Positions 6,389-46,203 of a stretch of DNA of 64,000 nt are shown here, in pieces. Origin of the DNA: Deltaproteobacteria bacterium (GTDB lineage: Bacteria > Myxococcota_A > Polyangia > JAAYKL01). The stretch lies in the NCBI GenBank assembly GCA_030595125.1, contig JAUVDV010000021.1, forward strand, positions 5,338 to 69,337, in the 5' to 3' direction. How positions within the stretch are numbered: position 1 is the first letter of the stretch; every line of letters starts with the position of its first letter. A program made the translations under genes and the position numbers. The notes under the pieces were generated by a model. The model ran no database searches. It saw nothing but the letters and a program-made list of their open reading frames with translations, and was not told the DNA's origin.

Positions 6389-6416
6389 TGTATCGCGGTT
6401 GTTGTCTTGTGATGGT

Positions 6417-6902: not shown

Positions 6903-6910
6903 CGTGAACC

Positions 6911-9971: not shown

Positions 9972-10062
9972 GATCCTGAAAGAAGAAGGGCGGATGGGGT
10001 CAGTGCAAGACTCTGGTTCCTGGACCGGTTCCTGGATGAAAACGCCTGCGTTGTGATGCCGG

Positions 10063-11739: not shown

Positions 11740-11753
11740 AAAGGAGTGAGAGT

Positions 11754-25931: not shown

Positions 25932-27461
25932 ATGAAAATCACAATGAAAAAAAAGAAATCAGCTCTCTTCCCGTTGACTTGTGCTTTGTTACTCGCGGCC
26001 TTCGCCTGGAACGGGTGTGGCGGTAATGACGACGAGGGGCAAGAGGCGCAGGGCCACTCGGCTTCCATTGCGGACACGGCTGCCGGCGGTGACGCGTCTG
26101 TTTCTGTTAAGCAAAAAGGGACGGTACGCAACGATGCTGATGCGCAACCGAAGAGCGACAAGGTGATCATGGTGGTGGTCGACGCCCTGCGTGCGGACGG
26201 GCTCGGCTGCTACGGGTATTCAAAGGACACATCCCCCACCATCGACAGATTAGCGAAAGAAGGGATCCTGTTCGAGCGAATGCACTCGGCATCTCCGTGG
26301 ACTGCTCCGTCGTTCGGCACTTTCTATACCGGCGTGTCACCGACCGTGCACGGGGCGGGAAGTATGCTCGCCAGGGGATCATCAAAGGGAACGACTCTGT
26401 TCGGCGTGACGGTGGGCGGCATCCGCAAGGACCTTCCAACGTTGCCTAAACTCCTGCCTGCGAAGGTTCGCAAGGGCGCCATTATCAACAACTCGTTCGT
26501 GTCAAAGGAGCTCGGGTTCGCGCGGGGGGTGGATGATTTCAACCACAAGATCGCTCATCTCACCAGGTATCGCACGGCGGACGAGGTGACCGACATAGCG
26601 GTAAAATGGCTGGAGGAGCACAAGGATGGCCCGTTCTTTCTGATGGCTCATTATTTCGATCCGCACATCCAGTACGGTCCTCCGAAGAAGTACCTGGCGC
26701 AGTTCGCGCCGGACAAACCGAGAAGGATTGCGTACCCCTTTGTGGATCACCACCCGGCGCGGGACGGCACGCTGAAGCCCAACGACGCCGAGAAGGCGTA
26801 TATTCGCGGCCTGTACAACGGAGAGGTCAGGTTCACCGACGATCAGATCGGCGTGCTCATCGGGACCATGGAGAAGATGGGGTTGATGGACGATACCTGG
26901 CTCATCATAACTTCTGACCACGGAGAGGAGCACTTCGATCACGGAAGCTTCGAGCATGGCCACCGATACGAGGAGGAGGTGGTTCGCGTTCCGTTCATCG
27001 TGAGGGCTCCGGGCGGCAAGTGGAAGGCGGGCACGCGGATTGCGGACCCGGTCTCACACGTCGATATCCTGCCGACGGTCCTCGATCTCTATTCCGTACC
27101 CTCACTTCCTCACTTCGAGGGCAGCTCCATGCTTCCCCTTGTCGACGGAAAGAAGCGCCCGGATCGCACATCGTACATGGAGTTCAACCTGTTCAAGGGG
27201 CAGCAATGCGCACTGTTCGACGGGCGCTACAAGGTCGTCTGGGATTTTCGCAGAAATCGGGCGTTCATGTACGACCTGAAAGAAGATCCCGGAGAGCTGA
27301 CAAAACTGGGGAAAGAGCACCCCATGTACGAGGGGATGCTGAAGCGCGTAAAGGCCAGGCGGGAAGAACTGACGCGACAGGCCAGGGGCAAGGTGTTCGA
27401 CAAGGGCGAGCTCTCTCAGGAAGCCGCCGATGCCCTGAAATCCCTGGGATATATAAAATAG
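25932..27461 (+). CDS. sulfatase-family (alkaline-phosphatase superfamily) lipoprotein, Thr-nucleophile variant
   Basis: MVVVDALRADGLGCYG...HSASPWTAPSF aligns with the sulfatase signature S-x-P-x-C-x-P-S-R, but has Thr at the fGly position and Phe for Arg. Confidence 0.7.
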   Translation: MKITMKKKKSALFPLTCALLLAAFAWNGCGGNDDEGQEAQGHSASIADTAAGGDASVSVKQKGTVRNDADAQPKSDKVIMVVVDALRADGLGCYGYSKDTSPTIDRLAKEGILFERMHSASPWTAPSFGTFYTGVSPTVHGAGSMLARGSSKGTTLFGVTVGGIRKDLPTLPKLLPAKVRKGAIINNSFVSKELGFARGVDDFNHKIAHLTRYRTADEVTDIAVKWLEEHKDGPFFLMAHYFDPHIQYGPPKKYLAQFAPDKPRRIAYPFVDHHPARDGTLKPNDAEKAYIRGLYNGEVRFTDDQIGVLIGTMEKMGLMDDTWLIITSDHGEEHFDHGSFEHGHRYEEEVVRVPFIVRAPGGKWKAGTRIADPVSHVDILPTVLDLYSVPSLPHFEGSSMLPLVDGKKRPDRTSYMEFNLFKGQQCALFDGRYKVVWDFRRNRAFMYDLKEDPGELTKLGKEHPMYEGMLKRVKARREELTRQARGKVFDKGELSQEAADALKSLGYIK

Positions 27462-29584: not shown

Positions 29585-30538
29585 TCAAGGCCCATCCGGC
29601 CAGTCTCTGGCGCAGCGGAAGCCGGACATTATCATCCTCCACCCACCGGGATGATGAACCCTGTTGGATGCTCGCAATCCCCATGGAAAGTAATTGAAAG
29701 CGCCACCCCTCAGCACGTACTCGCAGTCGGTGGGGATGGGGTTGGAGCCGGTGAAGCCCTGCAGCCCTTCTTTTCGGAGCATGTCCTGGGTGCGTTTGAT
29801 CTCACTACAATCGGCGGGGATTCCCCTGTCGGCGGTCGGTCGCATGTATGCGTGCGGATCGTAGTGATCCGATGTCCACTCCCAGACGTTTCCCGCCAGA
29901 TCCAGATGACCGTACGGGCCGGCGCCCTTCGGTTTACTGCCCACGTTCGCAGTGACGTTTTGCAGGTGTACCGCGTGTCGTCCGGTGGGCTCCTCGTTTC
30001 CCCATGCGTACATGCGGTTGTCCGATCCTCGGGCGGCCCGCTCGAACTCCGCCTCGCGCGGCAGGCGCTTTTCCTTCCACTTGCAATAGGTGGCGGCGTC
30101 TTGTTGGGATACCGAGGATACGGGGCGCTTCGGTGTTCTGAACTCCGATTCCTGTGCGAATTTGGTTTTGGAGTTGTCGACCCTTTTGGGTTTTCGGCAG
30201 ACGCCGGCGTCCACGCACTCCATGTACGCTTTGTTGGTAACTTCGGTCTTGTCCAGGAGGAATGGGGCGACGGTGACCTGGTGCTCGGTGCGTTCGTCTC
30301 TGATGGCGCGTTTGTGGTTGAGGCCCATTGTGAATGTTCCGCCGGGGACGCCGAGCATTCCCTCGGGTGTACTATCGCCCGCCCGCTCGACAGACGCTCC
30401 CTCCAGGCTTTTCGGAACTCTCATACCGACGCGGCCTACTATTCCCTTTTTTTGTGATACGGGCTTGCCCGCCGGTTCGACGTTTTTCTTTTCCTCGGGA
30501 GGTGGCGAACTGCAGGAGACCAGAAGAAAGACACACAT
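29585..30538 (-). CDS. FGE-sulfatase (SUMF1/EgtB/PvdO-like) domain lipoprotein
   Basis: MCVFLLVSCSS lipobox; GTFTMG...VTVAPFLLDKTEVTNKAY...HLDLAGNVWEWTSD...RGGAF motifs of the formylglycine-generating-enzyme fold. The Arg-rich 5' extension of ORF 29585..31384 is out-of-frame overlap with the next gene. Confidence 0.75.
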   Translation of the reverse strand: MCVFLLVSCSSPPPEEKKNVEPAGKPVSQKKGIVGRVGMRVPKSLEGASVERAGDSTPEGMLGVPGGTFTMGLNHKRAIRDERTEHQVTVAPFLLDKTEVTNKAYMECVDAGVCRKPKRVDNSKTKFAQESEFRTPKRPVSSVSQQDAATYCKWKEKRLPREAEFERAARGSDNRMYAWGNEEPTGRHAVHLQNVTANVGSKPKGAGPYGHLDLAGNVWEWTSDHYDPHAYMRPTADRGIPADCSEIKRTQDMLRKEGLQGFTGSNPIPTDCEYVLRGGAFNYFPWGLRASNRVHHPGGWRMIMSGFRCARDWPDGP

Positions 30539-30567
30539 TGCGAATGACAGTCTGGTGAGATGAAAAA

Positions 30568-31743
30568 TCACTTCAGCGCTTCGGTGCCGGCCTTTGAGAA
30601 ATCGCGTCCCCAGCAGATGCGATCGTGGGCCTCTTTTGGAAGCGAAGTCTTGCCGTCGACGGCGAGGGAGGCAACCTCCTGCCCGACCCCGGGGCCGAGC
30701 ATGAACCCCTGACCGCACATCCCGACCGCCAGGGTGAGCCCCTCGATTTGTGGCACGTTGTCGATGATGGGAACCCCGTCCGGGGTCATTGGATAGCACC
30801 CCCGCCAGACGCGCCTGACGAGCAGGTGCCGCATCCTGGGGATCAGGGATATCATACGGGCGGCGAGGATCGGCAAGAACTCCGAGAGGGATTCCCGGTT
30901 GTTGCCGATGAAGAGATCCTTTGGGGTGTAGCAGAAGATGATCTGTCCCTCGTCGTTCTGGCCGAAGTAGAAGTTGACTGTCTTTCCATCCGGACCCGGC
31001 CGCATGTCGACCACCAGGGGTTCGAGAAAACGTTCCACGGGCGCGGTGATCCCCGCCTCGTGGGAGTCGGGTTGAACGGGGATGTCGATACCCAGAAACT
31101 CGCCGTCCTGCCGGGCGTCGGAGCCGGTTGCCACGATAACCATAGGCGCTTCGTAGCTCCCCTTGTCGGTCCTGACGCCGCGAATCTTTTTCCCGTCGAT
31201 GTTGTAGCCGATCACCTTCTCGTTGAACCGGAACTTTGCGTCCAGTTCCATGGCCGCGCGCTGGAACGCCACCGGAACCTTGAGCGGTGAGAGCTGGCCG
31301 TCGTTGGGAGAGTAGGTTCCGCCTCGCAGACCCTTGCGCTCGATCCCCGGGACCAGTTCTGCCATACCGTCCGCGTCCACCCATTTAATTTCCAGGTTGT
31401 ATTTGTGTTGAATGGGGAACAGCCCGCGAAGGGTTTTTTCGAGGGGTTCGTCGTAGACGGGGAATGCGTAGCCGCCGGTCTTCCAGCCCACGTCGCTTCC
31501 GTGGGTCTCCTTCCATGTGGACATCTGGGCGAGACTTCGACTGCAAAGGACTATCTTGGCCGGGTCGGAGTGGGTCGCGCGTATTCCGCCGATGGCTGTT
31601 TTGTTGTCCCCCTGGCCGACGGCGGGACGACGATCCAGGACCAGGACCTTCAGGCCGCGCAGCGCCAGGTTGTATGCGCTCGGGACGCCGACGCTGCCGC
31701 CGCCCACCACGATCGCGTCGTAGGTTTTAGTCGGCATCGCCAT
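30568..31743 (-). CDS. FAD-dependent oxidoreductase, DAO family (OoxB/HcnC/sarcosine-oxidase-beta/proline-DH-beta-like)
   Basis: N-terminal dinucleotide fold YDAIVVGGGSVG; DAO-type architecture; C-terminal GxGxxG...G motif. Start overlaps the upstream gene stop by 17 nt. Confidence 0.75.
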   Translation of the reverse strand: MAMPTKTYDAIVVGGGSVGVPSAYNLALRGLKVLVLDRRPAVGQGDNKTAIGGIRATHSDPAKIVLCSRSLAQMSTWKETHGSDVGWKTGGYAFPVYDEPLEKTLRGLFPIQHKYNLEIKWVDADGMAELVPGIERKGLRGGTYSPNDGQLSPLKVPVAFQRAAMELDAKFRFNEKVIGYNIDGKKIRGVRTDKGSYEAPMVIVATGSDARQDGEFLGIDIPVQPDSHEAGITAPVERFLEPLVVDMRPGPDGKTVNFYFGQNDEGQIIFCYTPKDLFIGNNRESLSEFLPILAARMISLIPRMRHLLVRRVWRGCYPMTPDGVPIIDNVPQIEGLTLAVGMCGQGFMLGPGVGQEVASLAVDGKTSLPKEAHDRICWGRDFSKAGTEALK

Positions 31744-33796
31744 CTTCCTTGTGTGCAAAAGCTCCCAGCGGGATTTCAGCCACCAGGGGTCGGTTGGTTC
31801 CCGGAGTGATTTCGTCGAGGACCACGCCTTCCTCCCTGAAGATGCGGTAGACCAGCTCCGTGCACGTCTTCCCGCCGCAGCCGCCCATGCTCGGTCTGGC
31901 AAGGGCCTTGAGCTGGTTGATGTCCTTCACTCCGGCCCGGATCTCCTTGACGATTTCGCTCTTCTTCACGCGTTCGCAGCGGCAGACTATGGGGTCGTCG
32001 TCGTCGTCCGGGAGCAGCGGATCCACCGGGACGGAGGGCCCACGGATTGTGAAGCCGGCCACTTTGAGGCGCTCCTCGAACGGCACCTCTACCATCAACA
32101 GGCGTCGGCGATCTTGATCGGGACGCTCCCGAACGGCCAACACCTTGCCCTCGCCGATGATGTTGCCGTCGAAATCGACCGTCTTGACGTCGCCGCCAAG
32201 TGGGATCATGTCGTCGCTGTACTCGAAGGGAAGCATCAGCAAGGCTGTTTTCTTTTGTGGATCGTAGTCCTCGCAGACGAGGTTGATCGCCAGCCCCGGG
32301 CACAGGGTCACGCAGTTGCCGCAGCCGAGGCAGCCATCTGTGTAGCGCGGGAGCCCCATGATGCCCTCCATCTCGATGAGGTTTTCGGGGCATGCCTCCG
32401 TGCACGGGTTGCACGGAATCTCCTGGACGCATCGGATGACCGGGTAGACTCGTTCCCCGCCTTTCGGGATCTCCCAGGCTTCGACCTCTCCGGGCTTGCT
32501 GCGCAGCACCTCGGCCAGAGGTTCCCAGTGCTCGGGGATGTCCAGGGGAACCCCCAGATCTCTGGCTATCTTGCGGCCGATTATTCTGCCCGAGAAGATG
32601 GCGGCGGAGGCCTCGGCGACTTCTTCAGAATCTCCCGCGGCGTACACATTGAGGCCATACTCACGTGCCTTGATGAGGATCTCGTCCACCGACGCCAGCC
32701 CCACGGCGATGAGCAGGGTGTCGGCCTCGAAGGTCTTCTCGGTGCCGGCGATGGGTTGGAACCTCTCGTCCACCTGCGCGATGGTGACTTTTTCCAGATG
32801 CGTTTCGCCCCAGGCCTTGACCACCGTGTGGCTGGTCCAGATGGGGACGCCGAATCTCTTGAGCTTGTCCGCGTGAACCTTGTACCCACCGCACTCGGGA
32901 AGACCCTCCACCAGGCCCACCACGTCTATTCCGGCCTGGAGCGCGTGGTAGCCGCCGATGAGCCCCACGTTTCCGCCGCCGAGGATGAACAGCTTTTTGG
33001 ATGCTCCGATCAGGTCGCGATTGACAAGGGTCTGGAACGCGCCGGCGCCGTATATCCCGGGGAGGTCCGCTCCGGGGAATGCCAGTGATTTTTCTCTGGC
33101 GCCCATGGCGATGAGGACGTTTTTCGGGGTGACGAGCTTGTACCCGCCGGGAGTGGAGACCCCGACCTTGCCGTCCCAGAATATTCCCACGGCGGTGGTG
33201 TCGGTCCAGATCTGGATGTCGGGTAGATCGTCCAGCGCGTCGGTCAGAAGGTGACCGATATCAATTCCACGGGTGCCCGCCCAGCAGTCGGCCACGGATC
33301 CGAAGAAACCGTGGGTCTGGAGGGTGAGTTTGCCGCCGAGTTCCGGCTTGTCGTCCACTATCAGAACGTCGATTCCCACTTTGCCCAGCTCCACGGCTGC
33401 GCTCAGGCCCGCAGGTCCGCCGCCGATGATGAGAACATCGACCTCCACGTCCGGGGGGCGATGAAGGGACTTCACCTGATCGTCTGCGGGAAGGGGAGGG
33501 TTCCCCTGCGCGCTTGCGACCTCCATGCCGGGCTTAACCGCGACCATGCACGACTTGACGGCCCGGCCGTCGGCCAGGACCGTGCACTGGGAGCATTGTC
33601 CGTTGGCGCAGAAGATGCCCTGCGGCCCCCCGTCGCGATGGTGGCGCCCGAAAATAGAAATTCCCGAGGCGAACAGCGCCGACGCGATCATCTCGCCGGG
33701 GCGGGCTTTCAAGGATTGCCCGTCGAAGGTGAAATCGACGGTTCCGTCTGGCAACGGCTCCAGAATCGGATGGGATTGGATGCGTCGCTGGGTCAT
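31727..33796 (-). CDS. multidomain FAD/NAD(P)-binding iron-sulfur oxidoreductase (SoxA/OoxA/HcnB-like): [2Fe-2S] + two Rossmann folds + 2x[4Fe-4S] + BFD-like [2Fe-2S]
   Basis: N-terminal Fer2_4-like GIFCANGQCSQC; DVLIIGGGPAGLSAA and LFILGGGNVGLIGG; ferredoxin insert CNPCTEACP...CLGCGNCVTLCP; C-terminal CRCE...CGGKTC. Confidence 0.75.
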   Translation of the reverse strand: MTQRRIQSHPILEPLPDGTVDFTFDGQSLKARPGEMIASALFASGISIFGRHHRDGGPQGIFCANGQCSQCTVLADGRAVKSCMVAVKPGMEVASAQGNPPLPADDQVKSLHRPPDVEVDVLIIGGGPAGLSAAVELGKVGIDVLIVDDKPELGGKLTLQTHGFFGSVADCWAGTRGIDIGHLLTDALDDLPDIQIWTDTTAVGIFWDGKVGVSTPGGYKLVTPKNVLIAMGAREKSLAFPGADLPGIYGAGAFQTLVNRDLIGASKKLFILGGGNVGLIGGYHALQAGIDVVGLVEGLPECGGYKVHADKLKRFGVPIWTSHTVVKAWGETHLEKVTIAQVDERFQPIAGTEKTFEADTLLIAVGLASVDEILIKAREYGLNVYAAGDSEEVAEASAAIFSGRIIGRKIARDLGVPLDIPEHWEPLAEVLRSKPGEVEAWEIPKGGERVYPVIRCVQEIPCNPCTEACPENLIEMEGIMGLPRYTDGCLGCGNCVTLCPGLAINLVCEDYDPQKKTALLMLPFEYSDDMIPLGGDVKTVDFDGNIIGEGKVLAVRERPDQDRRRLLMVEVPFEERLKVAGFTIRGPSVPVDPLLPDDDDDPIVCRCERVKKSEIVKEIRAGVKDINQLKALARPSMGGCGGKTCTELVYRIFREEGVVLDEITPGTNRPLVAEIPLGAFAHKEDGDAD

Positions 33797-35502
33797 CGGT
33801 CCGCCTGCCTTTCCGCATCAGAGGCAGCCGCCGGGTCGGAGGCCAGAACGGGTTGCACGTGAGAGTTTCTCCAGGAGCCTTTGCGCAACAGGAGGAGGTA
33901 CTGGATCAACTCCGAGAGATCGCCCGTCTCGACAATATCGATGTCGTTGTCCTGAGCAGTTGTCAGGCGCTCGCGAAGGATCGCGATCTCTTTTGGGGGA
34001 AGCGCGAGTTGCAGATTGATCTGGGGCATCGGCCCGATGTGAACGCCCCTTGATTTGCTTGCCTCCAGATCTTTGCCGAGTATCGCCGGGAGTCGCGCAG
34101 GCTCAAGCAGGTGCCCCAACAGGATATCGAGATACGGAATGGCGCCTGCGTCGACGGAGCCTTTCGCCGATTTTGCTGCCGGGATCTCGTGGCTGTCGAG
34201 CCAGGCTTTTCCGTCGATGCTCAGCTCGTCGCGTTCGCATAGCCATCGGGTGACGGCCAGGGCGTCGTCCATTCCGTCCAGGGCATGATCGATCGGGAGA
34301 GTGGTTTTCAGGGGTGTTGGATCCGTGGCTTTTAAAAAATCCGCGATGGCGATGGTCGGCCCCTGCAGTCCGGGCAATGGCTCCACGAATTGCACACGTC
34401 CCTCGCCGAGGCCCACAAGACGGGCCAGGCGCTCCATCTGCTTGACTGTGTAACGCGCGTGTTTTTCCGATCCGTCCAGTTTGCATGTGGACTCGTGTCT
34501 CCCCATGACCAGTACCCCGTCATGACCTCTGGCGAGGGCGCCGATGAGCATTGCCGGGGTCACGCCCCCCACGCAGGGAAGCTCCATCACGTGTGCTCCG
34601 TCGGGGATAGTGGGCGAGGTCGGGATTTTGAGGGCAGACCTGCCGCACGCGATAACAAGGATACCCCCTGAGTTTTTGGGAAGATCCCTTGATGCGCGCG
34701 GTTGGGCTATTGCGCCGGTCGGGCACGCGGCCACGCAGACACCGCAGCCCCGGCACGCCTCCCGATCGATCGTGGAGACCGGCATTGCTCCTTTTTGCAG
34801 GACCACACGGGGAACTCGAAAGGGGCACGCCTCTTCGCAGGCGCCGCAACCCCGGCATTTTTCTGTCTCCACGCCGCAGACCGCGACGGGGAACTCCCGC
34901 TCCCAGATCTCGTAGACGCCGCCCTCGCGCCGATCCTTTATGTGCCCGGTGGGACACACGGAGGCACAGGATCCGCACCCGACGCAATCCTCGGGGGGCT
35001 TGTTGTCGAAGGTTCCGACCACCTTGTCGGAGCCCCGGTTAAGGGTTGAGATCGCGCTGGTGGCGTAGGTTTCGCAGACCCGGGTGCACATCCCGCACAG
35101 GATGCAGGTTTCGTCGCCCTCGGTGAAACGGGACTCGACGACGCCGAGCTTGAGCGCGAGCTTGCGAATCTCGGGGACGTTCGGGCAGCGGGCGAGCAGG
35201 GCCTCCATGGTCATGCGGCGGTATTGCACGACCTCCTGTGAGGCGGTGCGAAAGACCATCCCCTCGTTCACCGGGTAGTTGCACGCCGTGACAAATTTAC
35301 TCCATCCGTCGCGAACGTGCTCCACGATGCAAAGCCTGCAGGCGCCCGCCGGTTCGAGGGCGTCGTGATGGCAGAGGGTGGGGATGGAGATTCCCATGCG
35401 AGACGCCACGCTCAACAGGGAGGCGCGGTACGGAGCGGATATTTTGTGACCGTCGATGGTTATGGAAACAAGCTTTGTGGATTTATTGTCCATCGTGTTC
35501 AT
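33793..35502 (-). CDS. NuoG/HndD-like [2Fe-2S]/[4Fe-4S] protein fused to an MvhD/FlpD-like domain
   Basis: N-terminal ISIPTLCHHDALEPAGACRLCIV (NuoG-type 2Fe-2S); several CxxCxxCxxxCP clusters; ILVIACGRSAL...ELPCVGGVTPAMLIGALARGHDGVLVMGRHESTC matches the MvhD fold pattern. ATG at 35502 overlaps the nuoF-like TGA (ATGA). Confidence 0.7.
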   Translation of the reverse strand: MNTMDNKSTKLVSITIDGHKISAPYRASLLSVASRMGISIPTLCHHDALEPAGACRLCIVEHVRDGWSKFVTACNYPVNEGMVFRTASQEVVQYRRMTMEALLARCPNVPEIRKLALKLGVVESRFTEGDETCILCGMCTRVCETYATSAISTLNRGSDKVVGTFDNKPPEDCVGCGSCASVCPTGHIKDRREGGVYEIWEREFPVAVCGVETEKCRGCGACEEACPFRVPRVVLQKGAMPVSTIDREACRGCGVCVAACPTGAIAQPRASRDLPKNSGGILVIACGRSALKIPTSPTIPDGAHVMELPCVGGVTPAMLIGALARGHDGVLVMGRHESTCKLDGSEKHARYTVKQMERLARLVGLGEGRVQFVEPLPGLQGPTIAIADFLKATDPTPLKTTLPIDHALDGMDDALAVTRWLCERDELSIDGKAWLDSHEIPAAKSAKGSVDAGAIPYLDILLGHLLEPARLPAILGKDLEASKSRGVHIGPMPQINLQLALPPKEIAILRERLTTAQDNDIDIVETGDLSELIQYLLLLRKGSWRNSHVQPVLASDPAAASDAERQADR

Positions 35503-37355
35503 TTTCTGCTGATCGCGTCCCTGGTACAGGCGGACAGGCATGCTCCGCATTTGATACAGCCTGTCGTGTCGATAGTGTGAGTCTGTTTCTTGTCGCCCGC
35601 GATCACGTCTTTTGGGCAGACCTTGACGCAGGCGTGACAGCCGTCGCACAGCTCGGGATCGATGGAGTAGGTTATGAGCTCCACGCAGATGCCGCCCGGG
35701 CAACGGCGCTCCACGATGTGCGCCTCGTACTCGTCCCGAAAGTGGAGAATTGTGCTCAGAACCGGATTCGCGGCGGATCCGCCGAGGGCGCAAAGGGATG
35801 AGGTGGACATCCACTCTCCCAGCTCCTCGAGGATCTCGATGTCCTTCATTTCACCCTTGCCTTGAGTGATGCGGTCGAGTGTATCGAGAGCTGTTTTCAA
35901 CCCTTCCCTGCAGGGCACGCACTTGCCGCAGGACTCCTCCTTGAGAAAGTGGATGAAGTACCTGGCCACGTCCACCATGCAGGTGTCCTCGTCCATGACG
36001 ATCATGCCGCCGGAGCCCATCATGGAGCCGACCTCGGTCAGCTTCTGAAAATCCACCTGGAGATCGAGCATGCTCTGGGGGATACAGCCGCCGGAGGGCC
36101 CGCCGGTTTGCACCGCCTTGAACTTCTTGCCTTTCGGGATTCCGCCGCCGATCTCGTAGACGATGTCGCGCACGGAGATGCCCATTGGCACCTCCACGAG
36201 GCCCGTGTTGTTAATCTTTCCCACCAGCGAGAAGATCTTTGTGCCCTTGCTCTGTTCCGTTCCCACCGAGGCGAACTTGTCCGCTCCGTTCTCGATGATC
36301 TCCGGGACGTTTGCCCAGGTTTCGACGTTGTTGAGCGTGGTGGGAAAATCGAACAGGCCGTGCTCCACCGTGTGAACATACTTTGCCCTCGGTTCGCCGG
36401 AACGACCTTCGAGGGAAGCCATCAGGGCGGTGGACTCGCCGCAGACAAAAGCTCCGCCGCCCCGACTGATCCTGATATCGAACGAGAAGTCCGATCCGAG
36501 AATATCATCGCCGAGGAGCCCCGCGTGGCGCGCTTCATCGAGGGCGTCGATCAGTCGCTCAACTGCCAGGGGGTATTCGTGGCGCACGTATACGATGCCC
36601 TCTTTCGAGCCGACAGCGCGCGCGCCGATGAGCATTCCCTCGATGACCGCGTGGGGGTTGCCCTCGAGGAGACTCCGGTCCATGAAGGCGCCGGGATCCC
36701 CCTCGTCGGCGTTGCAGATCACGAACTTGCGCTCGCCGAGCGCATCGAGGCACGACCGCCATTTCCGGCCTGTGAGGAACCCGCCTCCACCGCGTCCCCG
36801 GAGCCCCGATCGGGTAACCTCCTCGATAATCTCGTCGGGTTTCATCTTGAACAGGGCCTTCTCGATGGCCGCATATCCGCCAATCGAGAGGTAATCGGTG
36901 ATGTCCGTCGGATCAATGTACCCGTTGTGAGCGAAGACCAGACGATGCTGCCTGGCGTAAAATGGGATGTCTTGCTCGTGGGCGATTCGATCGCCGCTCA
37001 CAGGTTCCTTGTACAAAAGTTCATCGATGATCTCGCCTGCGGCCACGGTTCGTTCGATGATCTTCTTGACGTTGCGGATCTTGACCTTTGGGTAGAACAC
37101 ATTGCTCGGCCTTACCACCACGATGGGGCCCTGCTCGCAAAAACCATGGCAGCCTGTCACCACAAGCTTGAACTCCGAAGCGAGGCCCTGGGCTTTTAGC
37201 TCCTCGCGCACCTTGTCGGCGACCTCCTTGCATCCTGCGGCCTGGCAACCGGTTCCGCCGCAGACGGTCACACTCTTGCGCATGGATGGATGGGTGACGG
37301 ACACTTTTTCCCTGATCTCCACGAGGGCTTTCGCGGTGGGGATCCTCTCGATCAT
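35499..37355 (-). CDS. NuoF-like NADH-binding FMN/[4Fe-4S] flavoprotein with N-terminal thioredoxin-like [2Fe-2S] and C-terminal 2x[4Fe-4S] domains (HndC/HydB-type)
   Basis: GRGGGGF NADH/FMN motifs, SLCALG-type cluster, N-terminal CGGTGCQAAGC, C-terminal CDGCHACVKVCP...CIKCGACLSAC. Confidence 0.85.
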   Translation of the reverse strand: MIERIPTAKALVEIREKVSVTHPSMRKSVTVCGGTGCQAAGCKEVADKVREELKAQGLASEFKLVVTGCHGFCEQGPIVVVRPSNVFYPKVKIRNVKKIIERTVAAGEIIDELLYKEPVSGDRIAHEQDIPFYARQHRLVFAHNGYIDPTDITDYLSIGGYAAIEKALFKMKPDEIIEEVTRSGLRGRGGGGFLTGRKWRSCLDALGERKFVICNADEGDPGAFMDRSLLEGNPHAVIEGMLIGARAVGSKEGIVYVRHEYPLAVERLIDALDEARHAGLLGDDILGSDFSFDIRISRGGGAFVCGESTALMASLEGRSGEPRAKYVHTVEHGLFDFPTTLNNVETWANVPEIIENGADKFASVGTEQSKGTKIFSLVGKINNTGLVEVPMGISVRDIVYEIGGGIPKGKKFKAVQTGGPSGGCIPQSMLDLQVDFQKLTEVGSMMGSGGMIVMDEDTCMVDVARYFIHFLKEESCGKCVPCREGLKTALDTLDRITQGKGEMKDIEILEELGEWMSTSSLCALGGSAANPVLSTILHFRDEYEAHIVERRCPGGICVELITYSIDPELCDGCHACVKVCPKDVIAGDKKQTHTIDTTGCIKCGACLSACTRDAISRK

Positions 37356-37903
37356 GACTGCCCCTCGTCTTTTGCGGACTGCTCGAGCTTATCCAGCAGC
37401 TTTTTCATCTTGTTGACGTTCATGTGACCGTGATGAATGTCGTTGACCTCCACCACCGGACCGATGGCGCAGGCTCCCACGCAGCCGACGCTCTGGAAGG
37501 TGAACTCACCGTCCACCGTGGTGTCCCCGGGTTCTATGTCCAGCTCGCGTTTGACAGTTTCGAGGATGAGCGGAGCCTGACGAACATGGCAGGCGGTTCC
37601 CATGCAAACGCGAACCAGATTGCGTCCGCGGGGCACGAGGCTCAACACGTTGTAGAAGGTGGCCACCGAGTAGACCTGTGCGGCGGGGATCTGAAGCCGG
37701 GCGGAGACCTCTTTCAGCGCGTCCGTCGGCAGGTAACCGAACTCGGTCTGTACGTCCTGGAGAATCATGACCAGGCTGGTTCGGTCGACAGGGTATCTCG
37801 AGAAAATCCGTTCGAGCATCTGGTATTCCTTGCTCTTTGAATGCCAGCCGTATGTAGGGTCGTATATCAGATCGGACGCACGCTTGTCGTGATCATTTGA
37901 CAC
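37352..37903 (-). CDS. NuoE-like (24-kDa, HndA-type) thioredoxin-like [2Fe-2S] ferredoxin
   Basis: CMGTACH...CVGACAIGPVVEV four-Cys motif; ATGA overlap with the nuoF-like start. Confidence 0.8.
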   Translation of the reverse strand: MSNDHDKRASDLIYDPTYGWHSKSKEYQMLERIFSRYPVDRTSLVMILQDVQTEFGYLPTDALKEVSARLQIPAAQVYSVATFYNVLSLVPRGRNLVRVCMGTACHVRQAPLILETVKRELDIEPGDTTVDGEFTFQSVGCVGACAIGPVVEVNDIHHGHMNVNKMKKLLDKLEQSAKDEGQS

Positions 37904-38057
37904 AGGGGAAAAACATATCTGCTCGGTGATAATTGTATAAAACTTTGTGACTCTGTATCATTATTTACGCGTCCAATAGACAACTAATGTCCAGTGCTCA
38001 ATTTGTGTTGGGAAATGGGTCGAGTCGCTTCCCGAATGGGAGCTCAAGGAGAAAATC

Positions 38058-40478
38058 ATGTATCTGCGTGTTTTTATTCCGGTATTTCTGGGGATTATCG
38101 TCGGATGGATGGGGTGTTCGGACGGTGGTGGAGGGTTCGATTTCGACCTGGATGGCGGCGGTGATACAGACACCGACGGAGATACCGACGGAGATACCGA
38201 CGGCGACACCGACGGCGACACCGACGGTGATACCGACACGGACACCGACACGGACACCGACACGGACACGGATACCGACACGGATACCGACACAGATACC
38301 GACACGGATACCGGCACAGATACCGGCACGGACACGGGCACCAGCACCGGATTCGACCCCACGGCTGATACAGACGGAGACGGAATCTCGGATGTGGACG
38401 AGGGGATAGCGGTGTTGCTCGACACAGACTCCGACGGAACTCCGGACTACCTGGACACGGACTCGGACGGTGACGGCATCCTGGACGTCGACGAGGCGGG
38501 CGACGGAGATGTGAGCACGGCGCCACTCGACAGCGATTCGGACGGCACGCCTGATTTCCAGGACACGGACTCGGACGGTGATGGCATCCTGGATTCCGTC
38601 GAGGGCAGCGGCGATAGCGATTCGGACGGAACTCCGGATTACCTGGACCTGGACTCGGACGGTGACGGCATCCTGGATTCGGTGGAGACCGATGGCGACG
38701 CTGACAGTGACGGCACGCCGAACTACCTGGACGACGATTCGGACGGAGACGGTATTCCGGATTCGGTGGAGACCGACGCCGATGCGGATTCGGACGGTAC
38801 GGCCAATTACCTGGATCTGGATTCGGATGGCGACGGTCTGTGGGACATTGTTGAGGCGGGTTCGAATCCGCTCATCCCGCAGGATACGGACGGCGACGGC
38901 ACGGCCAATTACCTGGACACGGATTCGGACGGAGACGGGTTGTCGGACAGCCTGGAGGTGATGTACGGCCTGAATCATCTGTCGATAGACACGGACGGAG
39001 ATACCATCTCCGACACGTACGATGGTTTCATGGACACTGACAGCGACGGCACAATCGACGGCCTGGACATGGACACTGACGGCGACGGGATCCCCGATTC
39101 GGTCGAGGCGGGGGACTCGATCCTCTCGACCCCGCCGGTTGATTCGGATGGTGACGGCCTGCCGGACTTCCAGGATCTGGACTCGGACGGGGATCTCCTG
39201 CCTGACGCGGCCGAGCTTGCTGCGGGCACGGATCCCACCGACCCCGACACGGACGGCGACGGCGCCAGCGATTTTGTGGAGGTGGCCGCCGGGACGGATC
39301 CCCTGGACGACGCCGACAATCCTGCCGCCAGCGGGGACTTCGTGTTCATAATGCCATACAACGGCACCGCAACCCCGGCGTACGACACGCTGGACTTCTC
39401 CTCAGATTTGCAAAAAGCGGATCTCTACTTCCTGGTGGATGTGTCCGGCTCCATGGTCAGCATCCTTGACAACATCAAGACCAACATGGCCACGGTCATC
39501 ACCGATGCCACCGCGACGATTCCGGACCTGCAGACCGGAATTGGATCCTTCCTTTACGCTGAATGCGCGAGCTACAAGGTCTACGATCATCGGCTGGACA
39601 TTCAGGCGAGCCCGGCAGTGGCGGCGTCAACCTTCCCCTCGTATAGCACGACCTACGAGTCATGCGGTGGATGCTGCTCCGAGCCACCCCGTTCCGCAAT
39701 GTACTGCGCGGCGACCGGGTTCGGCACCAGTGAGGCCGCTTCGGCGGGAGTTTCAGTTCCATCTGGAATTCCCAACGAAGTGAGTTGCGCCAACGAGCCG
39801 GGAGCGTGCGGGACAGGATACCTTGGCTATCCATGCTTCCGTCCCGGCGCGCGTCCCATCATTGCGGTTGTGACTGACGAGGGCTTCACCCAGTACACCG
39901 GAACCACCCAGGCGGCCACTATCGCCGCCCTCAATGCCATTGGAGCCAAGACCCTGGGGCTCTACGGCGTGGGTTCCTGGGGATATGCCGGGCGCGACGC
40001 CATGGAGATCTTCATGCTGGCTCAGGGGTCGGTGGACTCCTTCGGCAACCCACTGGTTTTTGATGCAACGTCTTCAGCTTCTTCGGTCATTGTAAACGCC
40101 ATCGAGGCGCTCGCCGAGGTCCCGATGGATCTCTGGGCTTACGGGACCGACAATTACGACGGGATAGATAGCTACGGTCTGAACGACACGGTGGACACGG
40201 TCTCCGAGTTCATCGACTACCTGGAGACCACCGATACCGGTGTTATCTGCACTACCTGGCCCACGTACGATGATGACGGCGACAGTCACGATGACACGCA
40301 CCTGCAGGTGGATCCGGGCAACAGGGTCTGCTGGGACATCCACGTCAAGGACAACGTGACGGTTCCCGCAACCACGTACCCGCAGATCTTTACCGCAACC
40401 ATCCATGTGTGGGGAGACGGCGTCACCGAGGTGGACACGCGCACGGTCTTCTTCCTGGTGCCCCCGACTATCGGGTAG
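38058..40478 (+). CDS. secreted lipoprotein: (TD/GD)n linker, ~20 thrombospondin-type-3 calcium-binding repeats, C-terminal vWA-like domain
   Basis: VGWMGCSDGG lipobox; DTDSDGDGILDSVE-type TSP3 repeats; vWA MIDAS start YFLVDVSGSM. Confidence 0.7.
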   Translation: MYLRVFIPVFLGIIVGWMGCSDGGGGFDFDLDGGGDTDTDGDTDGDTDGDTDGDTDGDTDTDTDTDTDTDTDTDTDTDTDTDTDTGTDTGTDTGTSTGFDPTADTDGDGISDVDEGIAVLLDTDSDGTPDYLDTDSDGDGILDVDEAGDGDVSTAPLDSDSDGTPDFQDTDSDGDGILDSVEGSGDSDSDGTPDYLDLDSDGDGILDSVETDGDADSDGTPNYLDDDSDGDGIPDSVETDADADSDGTANYLDLDSDGDGLWDIVEAGSNPLIPQDTDGDGTANYLDTDSDGDGLSDSLEVMYGLNHLSIDTDGDTISDTYDGFMDTDSDGTIDGLDMDTDGDGIPDSVEAGDSILSTPPVDSDGDGLPDFQDLDSDGDLLPDAAELAAGTDPTDPDTDGDGASDFVEVAAGTDPLDDADNPAASGDFVFIMPYNGTATPAYDTLDFSSDLQKADLYFLVDVSGSMVSILDNIKTNMATVITDATATIPDLQTGIGSFLYAECASYKVYDHRLDIQASPAVAASTFPSYSTTYESCGGCCSEPPRSAMYCAATGFGTSEAASAGVSVPSGIPNEVSCANEPGACGTGYLGYPCFRPGARPIIAVVTDEGFTQYTGTTQAATIAALNAIGAKTLGLYGVGSWGYAGRDAMEIFMLAQGSVDSFGNPLVFDATSSASSVIVNAIEALAEVPMDLWAYGTDNYDGIDSYGLNDTVDTVSEFIDYLETTDTGVICTTWPTYDDDGDSHDDTHLQVDPGNRVCWDIHVKDNVTVPATTYPQIFTATIHVWGDGVTEVDTRTVFFLVPPTIG

Positions 40479-40691: not shown

Positions 40692-42341
40692 CTATTCCAG
40701 GTACCCCAGCGCCCGCAGGGCCTCCACCTCGTCTTCGTTGAGTTTTGCCCTGATGGGAGAGGGGGCGTCTTTCGCCGTTCTGGAGGCGCGTTCGGTTTTA
40801 ATTATTCTGCTGAGCATGGTCTCGACGACGGCGAATCTGTTGGGACTTTTTCCCTTCGCGAAGGTGTGACTGATCAGGTTTTTGGCCTCCAGGGGGTCCT
40901 TTTTTATGTTGTACAGCTCTTTCTTTTTTGTGCGCTCATCTCGAATGAGCTTGAAGTCGCCGTGCCGCACGGAGACGCGATTGGACTTGGCCTGGGGGCG
41001 GTAGGTCTCCGACACCGCCGGGCGCATGCCGATGTCCCCCAACGGCCACAGATTTTTGCCCCGGATGTCGGGGGGCGACCCAAAACCGAAAAAGTGGCCT
41101 ATGGTCGGAAGTAGATCGATGTGCCTCACGGGTTCCGAGATCCGCCTGCCGGCATTTGTTTTATTCGGGAGGGCAATGATCAAGGGAACGTGGACGAGGC
41201 TTTCGTAGAGACGCTGGACGTGCTCGAAAACACCGTTGCGTTCGCCGAGTTCCTCTCCGTGATCCGATGTGAGCACGACCATGGTGTTGTTCCACAGGCC
41301 CAGAGTGGTCATACGCTCGAAAAGCGCGCCGATCTGCTCGTCCACGTAGGCGGTTTCTTCCGCGTAGCCCTGTCGTTTTTGCTCCACGGAAAGCATGAAG
41401 TGACTCTTGACGCGGATGGTGTGGGTTGCGGGTTTTTGCCCGTTGGTAACTATAATGGCAGCGCTTGAACGGGCCTCGAGAATCCTGCCGTCACCAGGTT
41501 TCTTTGCCTCGCGTCCCCATTCGTCGCTGAATTTTAGCGAGAGGCTCTTTGGGAACTTCCAGCGGGACAAGTGTATCCTGTGATCTCCCTTCGACGTGAA
41601 CACCACCGTGTTTTCGCCGGGGCGAAGAGCGAGCTCGATGTGGTGGTATCTGCCGTCGATGAGAATCGGTTTGATCGGATTTTCGTTGAGGGTGATCTCC
41701 GCGTTCTGGTACCAGCTCGGCGGAACGTACGGGCCATGGGGATCGGAGTAGTGAGCGAGGAGGAAGAACGGCCTGGATGAATTGTCGTCGAGCCACGGGA
41801 GCATCTCCGCGTTCATCTCACCGGCGGTCTTCCACCAGTAATGGGGAAACTCCTCGTGTATCGTGTCGAAACCCTGGAGAACCTTGTACTTGCTCTTCAA
41901 TGCTTCGAGGCTGATGAACGCGGTGGTTGCGCAGGAGCGACCTTTGAGGATCTCCGCCAGGGTATCGTATTTCTGTCGCAGTACGTCGGCGTTGTTGTGC
42001 ACCCCGTGTTGCGACGGCAGCATTGATGTGAACATGGATGCGTGGCTCGGTCCCGTGATGGGTGCGTGGGCGTACGCCTGTTCGAACAGAACACCCCGCT
42101 TCGCGAGGGCCTCCATGTTGGGGGTCGCGGTGGGTCCGCCGTGAAGCGCGATCTGGTCCGCGCGCAGGGTGTCGACGACAATGAGGAGGAGGTTTGCGGG
42201 GCCGTTCTTGGGAGGAAGGTGGTTTTCACCGCCACCGCATGACGCAAGGGCCGAAGCGGTCAGCATTACCATGGCCGTAAGCAGCTTTGCACCGACATGT
42301 GTGCGAGCGGGACAAGAGCGTTCGTTCCGGGTAGTCATCAT
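40692..42341 (-). CDS. sulfatase-family (AP superfamily) lipoprotein, Thr-nucleophile variant
   Basis: LLLIVVDTLRADQ...HAPITGPSHASMFTS: Thr at the fGly position and His for Arg; lipobox LASC. Confidence 0.7.
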   Translation of the reverse strand: MMTTRNERSCPARTHVGAKLLTAMVMLTASALASCGGGENHLPPKNGPANLLLIVVDTLRADQIALHGGPTATPNMEALAKRGVLFEQAYAHAPITGPSHASMFTSMLPSQHGVHNNADVLRQKYDTLAEILKGRSCATTAFISLEALKSKYKVLQGFDTIHEEFPHYWWKTAGEMNAEMLPWLDDNSSRPFFLLAHYSDPHGPYVPPSWYQNAEITLNENPIKPILIDGRYHHIELALRPGENTVVFTSKGDHRIHLSRWKFPKSLSLKFSDEWGREAKKPGDGRILEARSSAAIIVTNGQKPATHTIRVKSHFMLSVEQKRQGYAEETAYVDEQIGALFERMTTLGLWNNTMVVLTSDHGEELGERNGVFEHVQRLYESLVHVPLIIALPNKTNAGRRISEPVRHIDLLPTIGHFFGFGSPPDIRGKNLWPLGDIGMRPAVSETYRPQAKSNRVSVRHGDFKLIRDERTKKKELYNIKKDPLEAKNLISHTFAKGKSPNRFAVVETMLSRIIKTERASRTAKDAPSPIRAKLNEDEVEALRALGYLE

Positions 42342-45643: not shown

Positions 45644-46198
45644 ATGGATGTATTCGAAGCCATGGCGGATCGCCGCAGCGTTCGTAAGTTTACATCGGCG
45701 CAGGTGGACCAGGCAGATCTGGACAGGATCCTGGAGGCGGGGCGGATGTCCGCTTCATGGGCCAATACCCAGTGCTGGGAGATCGTCCTGGTGCGAGATT
45801 CAAAGATGAAAGAGAAACTCGCCGACACTCTGTCGGAGCACAACCCGGCGAGGAAAGCGGTGGTCCAGGCCCCTGTCGTGATCGTGGCTTGCGGCAAAAA
45901 AGGAAAGTCCGGATGCAAGAAGGGCGAGCACACAACCGTGCTGGGTGACTGGCTCATGTTCGACGTGGCCTTGTTCCTGAGCAATGTGACTCACGCGGCC
46001 CACGCTCTTCGGTACGGCACAGTTCACGTTGGTTTATTCGATCAAGATGAGGTGGCTCGATTGCTGAGCGTCCCGGACTATGTGCAGGTTGTAGAGATCG
46101 TTCCCCTGGGCAGGCCACAAGATCCTTCAAAGAATGCGCCGCCTCGAAAAGACATCCGTGAGTTTTGCCGCGAGGAGAATTTCCAGGGAAGCTCATAA
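45644..46198 (+). CDS. nitroreductase-family protein
   Basis: RRSVRKF and SASWANTQCWE motifs typical of the NfsB/Frp fold. Confidence 0.8.
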   Translation: MDVFEAMADRRSVRKFTSAQVDQADLDRILEAGRMSASWANTQCWEIVLVRDSKMKEKLADTLSEHNPARKAVVQAPVVIVACGKKGKSGCKKGEHTTVLGDWLMFDVALFLSNVTHAAHALRYGTVHVGLFDQDEVARLLSVPDYVQVVEIVPLGRPQDPSKNAPPRKDIREFCREENFQGSS

Positions 46199-46203
46199 GC
46201 GCC

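Follow-up and report, generated by a model that had tools for sequence, protein, structure and literature searches.

We identified a five-gene operon in a 64,000-nucleotide (nt) stretch of contig JAUVDV010000021.1 of a Deltaproteobacteria bacterium (assembly GCA_030595125.1), hereafter the window, in which a predicted NAD(H)-linked flavoprotein module of the Bfu family is encoded together with a pair of flavin-dependent dehydrogenase subunits (Table 1). The five consecutive open reading frames (ORFs), here g1 to g5, run on the minus strand from 37903 to 30568, and the window ORFs and their translations place all of them where an initial annotation of this DNA had put them. Read directly from the sequence, the g1/g2, g2/g3 and g3/g4 junctions are ATGA start/stop overlaps (...GTCATGATCG, ...AAAATGAACA and ...CCGATGACCC, respectively). 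g4 and g5 overlap by 17 nt when g5 is started at the ATG at 31743 and by 11 nt when the second ATG at 31737 is used; the latter has the better spacing to an AAGGAAG ribosome-binding site and is the start in the public gene call at one locus (L001, 389 amino acids (aa)). A public gene call for g3 gives 585 aa with a start at 35550. g1 could start at the GTG at 37903 or at an internal ATG about 28 codons further in. The GTG start adds an N-terminal extension (37819-37903, minus strand) of 28 residues before the first Met (MLERIF...) and the NuoE domain is recognized from residue 31, so the annotated start may lie too far upstream.

The five subunits and their closest relatives

g1 matches Pfam 2Fe-2S_thioredx (1e-46, residues 31-173) with four Cys in its translation (CMGTAC...GCVGAC), and it barely reaches the cut-off of the NCBIfam NuoE model NF005722 (score 141.2, cut-off 141). 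It has the single thioredoxin-like [2Fe-2S] site (C1) of a BfuC subunit, and its gene adjoins that of BfuB. The Pfam domains of g2 are, in order, an N-terminal 2Fe-2S_thioredx, Complex1_51K (2e-41), SLBB, NADH_4Fe-4S (1.5e-32) and a C-terminal Fer4 pair. g2 was matched over its full length by solved bifurcating BfuB chains, namely 7t2r_B of the NiFe-HydABCSL of Acetomicrobium mobile (2e-229), 9mqx_B of WorABCSL (3e-229) and 8a6t_B of the HydABC of T. kivui (6e-226), with all Cys motifs kept in these alignments, whereas non-bifurcating NuoF and FdsB chains matched at 1e-113 or worse and covered only residues 127-551. Bifurcating BfuB proteins are separated from non-bifurcating NuoF/HoxF homologues by the extra sites B5, B2 and B3/B4 (Schut et al., 2022; PMC9304861). 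In addition to the FMN/NAD(H) domains and the B1 [4Fe-4S] site, g2 has B5, B3 and B4, the last two in the C-terminal domain that is the ferredoxin-facing end of solved Bfu enzymes, and comparison with the supplementary alignment of PMC9304861 located the B2 residues as well (CMVD...H...CP..C; Cys, His, Cys, Cys). Judged by these cofactor sites, g1 and g2 make up the BfuC/BfuB core of the electron-bifurcating Bfu (HydABC-type) family in full.

g3 has Pfam matches to Fer2_4 (1e-14), to four Fer4 motifs and to FlpD (2.9e-13; 50.4 bits, cut-off 22.3), and it was modelled with AlphaFold2 (AF2) at a predicted local distance difference test score (pLDDT) of 94.6 and a predicted template modelling score (pTM) of 0.92. 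Its N-terminal part, residues 12-211, resembles WorA (2.6e-46), a short BfuA of type 2 that belongs to the bifurcating tungsten aldehyde oxidoreductase (WOR); the His-ligated cluster is absent from both, and fold searches with the AF2 model confirmed the WorA-like N-terminus. This domain has the A1 [2Fe-2S] and the [4Fe-4S] clusters with which a BfuA subunit feeds the BC core, and g1 to g3 together have the sequence features of a type-2 Bfu enzyme. The second dicluster ferredoxin of g3 resembles the C-terminal ferredoxin of HdrA2: residues 208-268 fall on positions 571-626 of the 777 of NCBIfam model NF040770, residues 571-635 of 5odc_A match at 5.5e-15, and Cys 216/219/222/226 and 250/253/256/260 are invariant. 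A profile of the FlpD region that follows matched solved MvhD chains (7bkb_F, 2e-14; 9sw2_D, 7.5e-14; 5odc_D, 1.5e-9). Across 101 homologues of g3, none of the 20 Cys at its [2Fe-2S] site and four [4Fe-4S] sites varies. The remaining C-terminal tail of about 190 residues contains one, non-conserved Cys. It was aligned by hhalign with the CCG proteins of related loci (probability 96.6%, E 7e-10, 50 columns) and with the C-termini of GltD-FlpD fusions (96.2% over 138 columns), and on these alignments it is possibly a relic of an HdrB/D-type CCG domain. For the C-terminal domains, structure searches with the AF2 model returned generic Rossmann-like matches only, with HdrB outside the top 60, and a PDB profile search with the FlpD and C-terminal regions confirmed MvhD and gave nothing for the tail.

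g4 has Pfam matches to Fer2_4 (5e-23), Pyr_redox_2 (8e-22), Fer2_BFD (6e-8) and, weakly, to a Fer4 pair. SoxA was its top profile match (2gag_A, 2.5e-27, residues 16-396), and PH1363, the alpha subunit of the L-proline dehydrogenase of Pyrococcus horikoshii, was also found (1y56_A, 3.8e-23), at low identity and over residues 13-274 only. The motifs of the opine dehydrogenase, D-hydroxyproline dehydrogenase, hydrogen cyanide (HCN) synthase and L-proline dehydrogenase family were defined by Watanabe et al. (PMC4575208), and their invariance in g4 was scored over 15 diverse homologues. Invariant were the gamma-type [2Fe-2S] motif at the N-terminus (C63-x4-C68-x2-C71-x11-C83), the dinucleotide-binding motifs GGGPAG and GGGNVG (the FAD site and a second nucleotide site), the eight Cys of an inserted ferredoxin-like segment (456/462/465/469 and 489/492/495/499) and the BFD-type [2Fe-2S] motif (C605-x-C607-x32-C640-x4-C645), whose spacer is longer than the 15-20 residues quoted in PMC4575208. 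g4 therefore has the two ADP-binding motifs, the BFD [2Fe-2S] site and the N-terminally fused gamma-type motif of an alpha subunit; fusion of the gamma part to the alpha N-terminus is the state described for the archaeal L-proline dehydrogenase alpha subunit (PMC4575208). An AF2 model of g4 from the 15-sequence alignment was too poor (mean pLDDT 58.6, pTM 0.39) and was left unused.

g5 belongs to the DAO family (Pfam DAO, 5.6e-57) and has an ADP-binding motif, GGGSVG, near its N-terminus. Its best solved relative is PH1364 (1y56_B), the beta subunit of the P. horikoshii L-proline dehydrogenase, which matches over the full length at 3.7e-52; SoxB chains are next at about 1e-19, and ThiO and every other solved relative are also far behind PH1364. 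R311-V-W313 of g5 aligns with R-T-W of PH1364, and this Arg-x-Trp is a putative FMN-site motif, proposed for an interface FMN (PMC4575208). g5 thus combines the three features of a beta subunit (DAO family, N-terminal ADP-binding motif, Arg-x-Trp), and on their motifs and profile matches g4 and g5 are the alpha and beta subunits of an enzyme of the L-proline dehydrogenase / opine / D-hydroxyproline / HCN-synthase / sarcosine-oxidase family.

The initial annotation had described a linked five-gene operon and had assigned domains to each product, with g4 and g5 as an OoxA/SoxA-type dehydrogenase pair. The three ATGA overlaps and the g4/g5 overlap of 17 nt, or 11 nt with the second ATG, bear out the former; every domain assignment was recovered with Pfam, NCBIfam and profile matches to solved chains, and the pair is upheld by the SoxA and proline dehydrogenase alpha profiles of g4 and by the DAO match of g5. 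With these Pfam E-values, and with conservation in hundreds of genomes, chance is ruled out. A proposed resemblance of g4 to HdrA holds at the level of the Rossmann fold and superfamily and fails for the architecture, where the SoxA and PH1363 matches span residues 13-396; the Hdr-like piece sits in g3. As a candidate relative of g4, HdrA was rejected, its matches covering only the first Rossmann element (residues 116-191, ~1e-8 to 1e-4).

Table 1. Genes, domains and promoter-like site of the operon (window coordinates)
Feature	Coordinates	Strand	Assignment	Remarks
g1	37352..37903	-	BfuC/NuoE-like thioredoxin-like [2Fe-2S] subunit	183 aa; start uncertain
g2	35499..37355	-	BfuB (NuoF/HydB-like) NAD(H)/FMN subunit, full extra-site set	618 aa
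g2, N-terminal domain	37050..37292	-	thioredoxin-like [2Fe-2S] domain (B5 site)	Pfam 2Fe-2S_thioredx, residues 22-102; Cys align with HydB
g2, C-terminal domain	35508..35666	-	2x[4Fe-4S] ferredoxin domain (B3/B4)	Pfam Fer4, Fer4_9, Fer4_7, residues 564-616; aligns with solved HydB C-termini
g3	33793..35502	-	putative chimeric adaptor: BfuA-like N-terminus, second dicluster ferredoxin, MvhD/FlpD, C-terminal domain	569 aa
g3, N-terminal domain	34870..35502	-	type-2 BfuA (WorA-like)	residues 1-211; [2Fe-2S] + 2x[4Fe-4S], no His-ligated cluster
g3, second ferredoxin	34693..34869	-	2x[4Fe-4S], like the HdrA/HdrA2 C-terminal ferredoxin	residues 212-270 (matched region from ~203)
g3, MvhD/FlpD domain	34378..34665	-	MvhD/FlpD	residues 280-375
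g3, C-terminal domain	33796..34377	-	Cys-poor, poorly conserved	residues 376-569
g4	31727..33796	-	fused gamma-alpha subunit, L-proline/opine/D-hydroxyproline dehydrogenase, HcnAB and SoxA family	689 aa
g4, insert	32282..32431	-	2x[4Fe-4S] ferredoxin-like segment	residues 456-505; Pfam Fer4_9 and Fer4_7 weak
g5	30568..31743	-	beta (catalytic) subunit, DAO-family FAD	391 aa (389 aa from 31737)
Promoter-like site	37932..37961	-	sigma-70-like match ATGATA-18-TACAAT	divergent intergenic region, 30-60 nt upstream of g1; consensus match only

Related loci and genomic context

The g4 family comprises 7,547 protein clusters at E <= 1e-20, and with each GTDB species represented by a single genome, at least 587 species have a relative of g4. 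The best 80 of these at least 587 were analysed; all are metagenome-assembled genomes (MAGs), and the sample is biased toward close relatives. Neighbourhoods were tallied by targeted hidden Markov model (HMM) and tblastn searches, which replaced a single-linkage clustering of neighbourhood ORFs in which g3, g4 and g5 had merged into one family through common domains and fusions. The closest g4 species representatives among the matches listed were Myxococcota/Polyangia MAGs, at 71-75% identity.

g5 directly follows g4 in 71 of 82 loci, most exceptions being contig ends. The upstream arrangement was counted in the 67 loci with at least 3 kb upstream of g4. The order of the window, BfuBC, then BfuA-FlpD, then g4-g5, was found in 18 of them, from Myxococcota/Polyangia, Planctomycetota, Bacillota/Syntrophomonadaceae and unclassified 'Deltaproteobacteria' MAGs, and in three more BfuA-FlpD occurs without an adjacent BfuBC. 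Twelve loci have instead a protein in which a GltD/NfnB-like flavoprotein is joined to a dicluster ferredoxin and FlpD, as a rule with a Fer4_8+CCG protein after it; three loci have both module types together and 31 have neither. The ferredoxin-MvhD module is the constant element beside g4, and the NAD(P)H module is exchangeable.

Several of these genes are naturally fused. In nine loci g3 is fused to g4 in an ORF of 1264-1410 aa; these comprise every Bacillota locus (eight) and one from Myxococcales (L016, L019-L021, L023-L025, L050 and L007). The same fusion is seen in the database proteins P0021, P0023 and P0034; in P0021 and P0034, residues 1 to ~446 align with g3 at 54-55% identity (BLASTP) and are followed by g4. 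NuoE and NuoF are a single ORF in 16 loci. The initial annotation had named genes that are normally separate and merely adjacent here as an outcome that would speak against it; the same order in at least three phyla and the g3-g4 and NuoE-NuoF fusions tell otherwise. On this synteny and these fusions, g1 to g5 very likely encode one complex. The Bacillota version of the five-gene operon consists of three genes, and its fused forms would be convenient for expression.

Stand-alone g4-g5 pairs, with no FlpD or NAD(P)H module 3-10 kb upstream, include L005 (g4 at 3409-5463), L036-L037, L056-L068 and others; one of them comes from a Myxococcota MAG whose g4 is 75% identical to that of the window. 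Examples of the GltD type are L027:6429-9977, L044:6549-9991, L028:2171-5350, L052:6972-9989 and L041:7400-10000. Here a Fer4_20 and Pyr_redox_2 protein is fused to the dicluster ferredoxin and FlpD and is usually followed by, or fused to, the Fer4_8+CCG (HdrD/B-like) part, in Thermoplasmata/Methanobacteriota archaea, Spirochaetaceae and deltaproteobacterial MAGs. This GltD-FlpD type is apparently a second, undescribed MvhD-linked version of the same dehydrogenase. L027, L035 and L049 (~3200-12100 in each) carry the string NuoF, NuoE, short BfuA, GltD-ferredoxin-FlpD, CCG protein, g4 and g5, a combination that recalls Bam-Bfu and suggests a complex of very large size, with NAD(P)H-type entry at two points.

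Around the window operon, promoter and terminator scans returned no more sites than in shuffled sequence, and the terminator scan placed no terminator-like site between the operon genes or between g5 and the gene that follows it. That gene, the sixth on this strand, encodes a lipoprotein of the formylglycine-generating enzyme (FGE)-sulfatase family (29585-30540, minus strand, about 29 nt after g5) and is not conserved at related loci. No Rfam element, including the glycine riboswitch, was found in the window at the gathering threshold or in 37700-38300 at E <= 1. Two sulfatase genes lie near the operon, at 25932-27461 (+) and 40692-42341 (-), and the FGE and sulfatase genes are probably a separate trait of sulfated-glycan utilisation. 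An aldehyde:ferredoxin oxidoreductase (AFOR) gene at 56921-58975 (+; AFOR_N 3e-93, AFOR_C 7e-68) attests to the use of ferredoxin-linked tungsten/molybdopterin enzymes and makes it likely that the organism is an anaerobe. Radical-SAM enzymes, several peptidases, sulfatases and a glycerol kinase are also encoded in the window. The peptidases within 20 kb, a C69 dipeptidase (47808-49457, -), an S8 subtilase (52061-54715, -) and an S13 D-Ala-D-Ala carboxypeptidase (46165-47673, +), fit a peptide-degrading lifestyle as a supply of proline, and the whole fits an anaerobic, ferredoxin-using degrader of sulfated glycans and peptides. The region is flanked by large proteins, secreted or repeat-containing, of thrombospondin type 3 (TSP3) repeat, FG-GAP and WD40 beta-propeller types, at 38058-40478 (+; the TSP3 protein, whose gene is divergent from the operon), 7986-9971 (+) and 10387-11739 (+). 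An ORF of 1746 aa at 58753-63993 (+) gave no Pfam match at E <= 1e-5; as listed, it begins before the AFOR gene has ended, and the true start is probably later.

A candidate ferredoxin-coupled proline:NAD+ oxidoreductase

A gene for delta-1-pyrroline-5-carboxylate (P5C; L-glutamate gamma-semialdehyde) dehydrogenase adjoins g4-g5 relatives in 10 loci from five phylum-level lineages (Thermoplasmata, Victivallales, Spirochaetaceae, Bdellovibrionales and Bacillota). The products score 740-798 bits against an NCBIfam equivalog cut-off of 613.6, or 771 against 648. The gap to g4-g5 is 32-90 nt in several loci, and in Thermoplasmata the P5C dehydrogenase gene and the g4-g5 unit have a common divergent promoter region. 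In Syntrophomonadaceae loci with the full Bfu arrangement, an ornithine-oxo-acid transaminase is encoded upstream (706.6, cut-off 656) and ProC directly downstream of g5 (272.6, cut-off 196.75). P5C is made or used by all three of these neighbours, and Liv-type ABC transporters and peptide transporters also recur near g4-g5 relatives. Because the relatives adjoin P5C dehydrogenase, ornithine aminotransferase and ProC, and with 1y56_B as the closest solved homologue, the evidence points to proline/P5C as the substrate. The amine or imine substrate of the initial annotation is thereby kept and narrowed, and its candidate bifurcating or confurcating complex is well founded because g2 carries all the features that separate BfuB from NuoF/HoxF.

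On balance we lean towards a reversible, ferredoxin-coupled proline:NAD+ oxidoreductase, for which we infer substrate, ferredoxin coupling, stoichiometry, direction and bifurcation site as follows. The five gene products would form one soluble iron-sulfur flavoprotein complex. Its BfuBC core (g1 and g2) would bind NAD(H) at the FMN, and would bind ferredoxin where g2 ends in its dicluster domain. g3 would act as the wire, with its BfuA-type clusters leading into BfuB and its HdrA2-like ferredoxin and MvhD domain leading on to g4. g4 and g5 would be a proline dehydrogenase of the archaeal PDH type, in which the FAD of g5 oxidises L-proline to P5C and g4 carries a flavin and four Fe-S clusters. 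Electrons would pass, in either direction, between the g5 FAD, the g4 flavin and clusters, the MvhD domain, ferredoxin and BfuA clusters of g3, B1 and the BfuB FMN (NAD+/NADH), and a low-potential branch would lead to ferredoxin through the BfuC cluster and the C-terminal diclusters of BfuB, as in solved Bfu enzymes (PMC11829005, PMC12318220). The overall reaction would be L-proline + reduced ferredoxin (2 e-) + 2 NAD+ <-> P5C + oxidised ferredoxin + 2 NADH. In the proline direction this would be a confurcation, the downhill electrons of ferredoxin paying for uphill NAD+ reduction; in reverse, the enzyme would be an energy-conserving, ferredoxin-reducing P5C reductase with P5C as electron sink. 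The P5C dehydrogenase neighbours favour the catabolic direction. The bifurcation site would most likely be the BfuB FMN, with NADH as the two-electron partner. Anaerobes could in this way oxidise proline to glutamate without a quinone, with ferredoxin reduced later by 2-oxoglutarate oxidation.

The potentials concerned are about -123 mV for proline/P5C, -320 mV for NAD+/NADH and about -450 mV for ferredoxin. The proline/P5C couple is too positive for NAD+ reduction by itself, and plain proline:NAD+ oxidation is strongly endergonic. With these values the coupled reaction is near equilibrium, at about -13 kJ/mol toward P5C reduction under standard conditions.

Several points weigh against a coupled proline enzyme. 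The characterised Bfu enzymes bifurcate the electrons of a third substrate of about -400 mV (PMC9304861, PMC12318220), and they are said to require four electrons of mid potential at FMN/B1/C1 (PMC12318220). The presumed third substrate here is about 280 mV more positive than theirs, so the accepted mid-potential splitting scheme cannot apply as written; as a couple at -123 mV is outside this scheme, the Bfu core would need a mode with NADH as the bifurcated donor, which is not yet demonstrated in any Bfu enzyme. In such a high-potential reading, the BfuA-ferredoxin-MvhD adaptor would serve a classical flavin-based bifurcation from NADH to ferredoxin and P5C, or the reverse. That this is the first Bfu enzyme acting on an amino acid and the first with a high-potential third substrate, NADH being the two-electron species at the FMN, is a tentative proposal to which we give a little less than an even chance. 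In the MvhD domain of g3 only three Cys are invariant (C286, C310 and C340). At the fourth canonical position the window protein has Gly334 and Planctomycete-type homologues have a Cys; the domain may be degenerate. The 31 of 67 loci in which g4-g5 has no NAD(P)H or MvhD module nearby imply that the pair can work with other partners. The substrate is unsafe from homology alone, since one beta subfamily close to the archaeal L-proline dehydrogenases is inactive on L-proline (PMC4575208). No P5C dehydrogenase, ProC or proline transporter is encoded beside the operon in the window, and neither direction readily accounts for a ProC gene immediately after g5 in Syntrophomonadaceae.

Some of these points fit the same complex acting with NAD(H) and ferredoxin on another amine or imine, such as trans-4-hydroxy-L-proline, D-proline, D-hydroxyproline, pipecolate, sarcosine or an opine, which we regard as unlikely though it deserves serious weight. 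Opine, D-hydroxyproline, HCN-synthase and sarcosine enzymes have the same subunit plan, and specificities have switched repeatedly in this family, the beta subfamily just mentioned being a case in point (PMC4575208). Neither g4 nor g5 passes any NCBIfam equivalog model, and the window operon is without a P5C-pathway neighbour. Against this, the neighbours of close relatives (g5 49-66% identical) point to P5C and not to delta-1-pyrroline-2-carboxylate (P2C), glyoxylate or formaldehyde. Genes for a proline-racemase-family epimerase, for a deaminase like dihydrodipicolinate synthase (DHDPS) and for folate-dependent proteins did not recur in the neighbourhood clustering, and the glycine riboswitch and other Rfam elements are missing upstream of g1.

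A further possibility keeps complex and substrate and gives up the energy coupling: NADH, with or without reduced ferredoxin, would plainly reduce P5C or another acceptor, or proline electrons would go to an acceptor of higher potential and the Bfu core would be only a diaphorase. Taken together we consider these two variants improbable. For Nuo-Bfu, Rub-Bfu and Bam-Bfu a simple co-oxidation has been proposed, in which NADH and ferredoxin feed much more positive acceptors (Schut et al., PMC9304861). The many g4-g5 pairs without a Bfu or GltD module and a possibly degenerate MvhD domain would agree with this. A plain NADH:P5C reductase, however, would duplicate ProC, which is encoded beside the operon in some relatives, and g2 keeps all the ferredoxin-side features lost from non-bifurcating NuoF/HoxF/HydB homologues. 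The endergonic nature of plain proline:NAD+ oxidation likewise speaks against an uncoupled enzyme.

That two unrelated enzymes merely lie side by side, a BfuABC-type module made for another partner and an independent g4-g5 dehydrogenase, is close to refuted: g4-g5 does stand alone in 31 of 67 loci and BfuA-FlpD-g4-g5 lacks an adjacent NuoEF in three, but the covalent g3-g4 fusions in nine loci and several database proteins, the gene order kept across phyla and the start/stop overlaps in the window make it very unlikely, and no hydrogenase, formate dehydrogenase (FDH) or WOR, as an alternative catalytic partner, is encoded within the operon or its flanks.

As a rule, the oxidation of proline is coupled to a respiratory quinone. 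If the complex is a ferredoxin-coupled proline:NAD+ oxidoreductase, its operon-encoded NAD(H)/ferredoxin partner would be a concrete answer to where proline electrons at about -120 mV go in fermenting and syntrophic anaerobes, which is not otherwise established; an abundant amino acid reaction would join the short list of flavin-based bifurcating systems; and the missing proline dehydrogenase of strict anaerobes without a quinone-linked PutA would be at hand. Together with the GltD-MvhD-CCG variants, it would represent a family of proline dehydrogenases that dock through MvhD and are widespread in both bacteria and archaea. The 'dye-linked' archaeal proline dehydrogenases would gain a likely physiological context. 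The Bfu mechanism is still disputed (PMC11829005, PMC12318220), and a Bfu member with a substrate about 280 mV above H2, formate and NADPH would be a sharp test of NADH bifurcation at FMN/B1/C1. Annotation of uncultured anaerobes could also gain, as the members of the g4 family, spread over at least 7,500 protein clusters and 587 or more species representatives, now carry generic names; homologues are publicly annotated as 'FAD-dependent oxidoreductase', 'sarcosine oxidase subunit alpha', '4Fe-4S dicluster domain-containing protein' or 'bidirectional hydrogenase diaphorase subunit'.

Comparison with known systems

The closest known systems on the NAD(H) side are the BfuABC enzymes (HydABC-type), above all the type-2 WorABCSL of A. 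mobile (PDB 9MQX), and also NiFe-HydABCSL, FeFe-HydABC and NfnABC. g1 and g2 have their full set of BfuC/BfuB cofactor sites, about half of the residues being identical by eye in alignments with solved BfuB subunits, and the g3 N-terminus is a WorA-type BfuA without the His-ligated cluster, as in WorABCSL. Where these enzymes have a hydrogenase, FDH, WOR or NADPH module, the operon has an amino acid dehydrogenase pair, and its BfuA is extended by an Hdr-type ferredoxin-MvhD module. Proline, sarcosine, FAD-dependent or heterodisulfide types are not among the Bfu types of PMC9304861 or its supplement.

On the substrate side the operon resembles the archaeal dye-linked L-proline dehydrogenases (PDH1, alpha4beta4, of P. 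horikoshii (PDB 1Y56) and PDH2, alpha-beta-gamma-delta, of Thermococcus profundus), which include the best solved match of g5. Common to both are two nucleotide-binding motifs and a gamma-like N-terminal segment in the alpha subunit, Arg-x-Trp in the beta subunit and adjoining alpha and beta genes. In contrast to them, the single g4 chain combines an inserted 2x[4Fe-4S] with a BFD [2Fe-2S] and an intact gamma-type [2Fe-2S]. The archaeal enzymes have been characterised with artificial dyes only and lack a defined physiological partner, whereas here a partner is encoded in the operon. The heterooligomeric flavin opine dehydrogenases OdhABC/OoxAB/NoxAB, D-hydroxyproline dehydrogenase LhpBEF, HCN synthase HcnABC and the heterotetrameric sarcosine oxidase SoxABDG share an alpha subunit with FAD and a BFD [2Fe-2S], a DAO-family beta subunit with FAD and a gamma [2Fe-2S] motif (C-x4-C-x2-C-x11-12-C). 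They are, however, aerobic enzymes or linked to membranes or dyes, none of them comes with an NAD(H)/ferredoxin module, and they have a separate gamma subunit and no 2x[4Fe-4S] insert, whereas g4 has gamma fused and the insert; compared with SoxABDG, g5 is much closer to the L-proline dehydrogenase beta subunit than to SoxB.

MvhAGD-HdrABC, HdrA2 (an HdrA-MvhD fusion) and FlxABCD-HdrABC use MvhD as an electron adaptor onto a flavoprotein with two dinucleotide-binding domains, the role proposed here for the MvhD domain of g3. Residues 208-375 of g3 resemble the C-terminal ferredoxin and MvhD of HdrA2, and at the related GltD-FlpD loci the gene that separates the FlpD gene from g4 encodes an intact CCG protein (HdrB/D-like). 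The window operon differs in having no HdrA, no hydrogenase and no evident heterodisulfide-type substrate, and no CCG domain was matched by Pfam in it. By its domain content it is not a member of the Hdr systems, as it has neither HdrA nor a functional CCG domain; only the Hdr-type ferredoxin-MvhD adaptor is borrowed.

In the lactate dehydrogenase-EtfAB of Acetobacterium woodii and in Bcd/Car-EtfAB, reduced ferredoxin drives the reduction of NAD+ by a substrate that is too positive, and the reverse reaction bifurcates NADH to ferredoxin and a positive acceptor. The analogy extends to the logic of the mechanism only: these systems, with their bifurcating FAD, belong to unrelated protein families without sequence similarity to the proteins studied here.

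The initial annotation did not recognise the arrangement as a described system, and we likewise found no description of a proline-, sarcosine- or DAO-linked Bfu or MvhD system in the full-text literature, subscription-only papers not being covered. Set beside the known systems, the apparent novelty lies in the catalytic partner, the adaptor and the atypical potential span of a Bfu-type enzyme.

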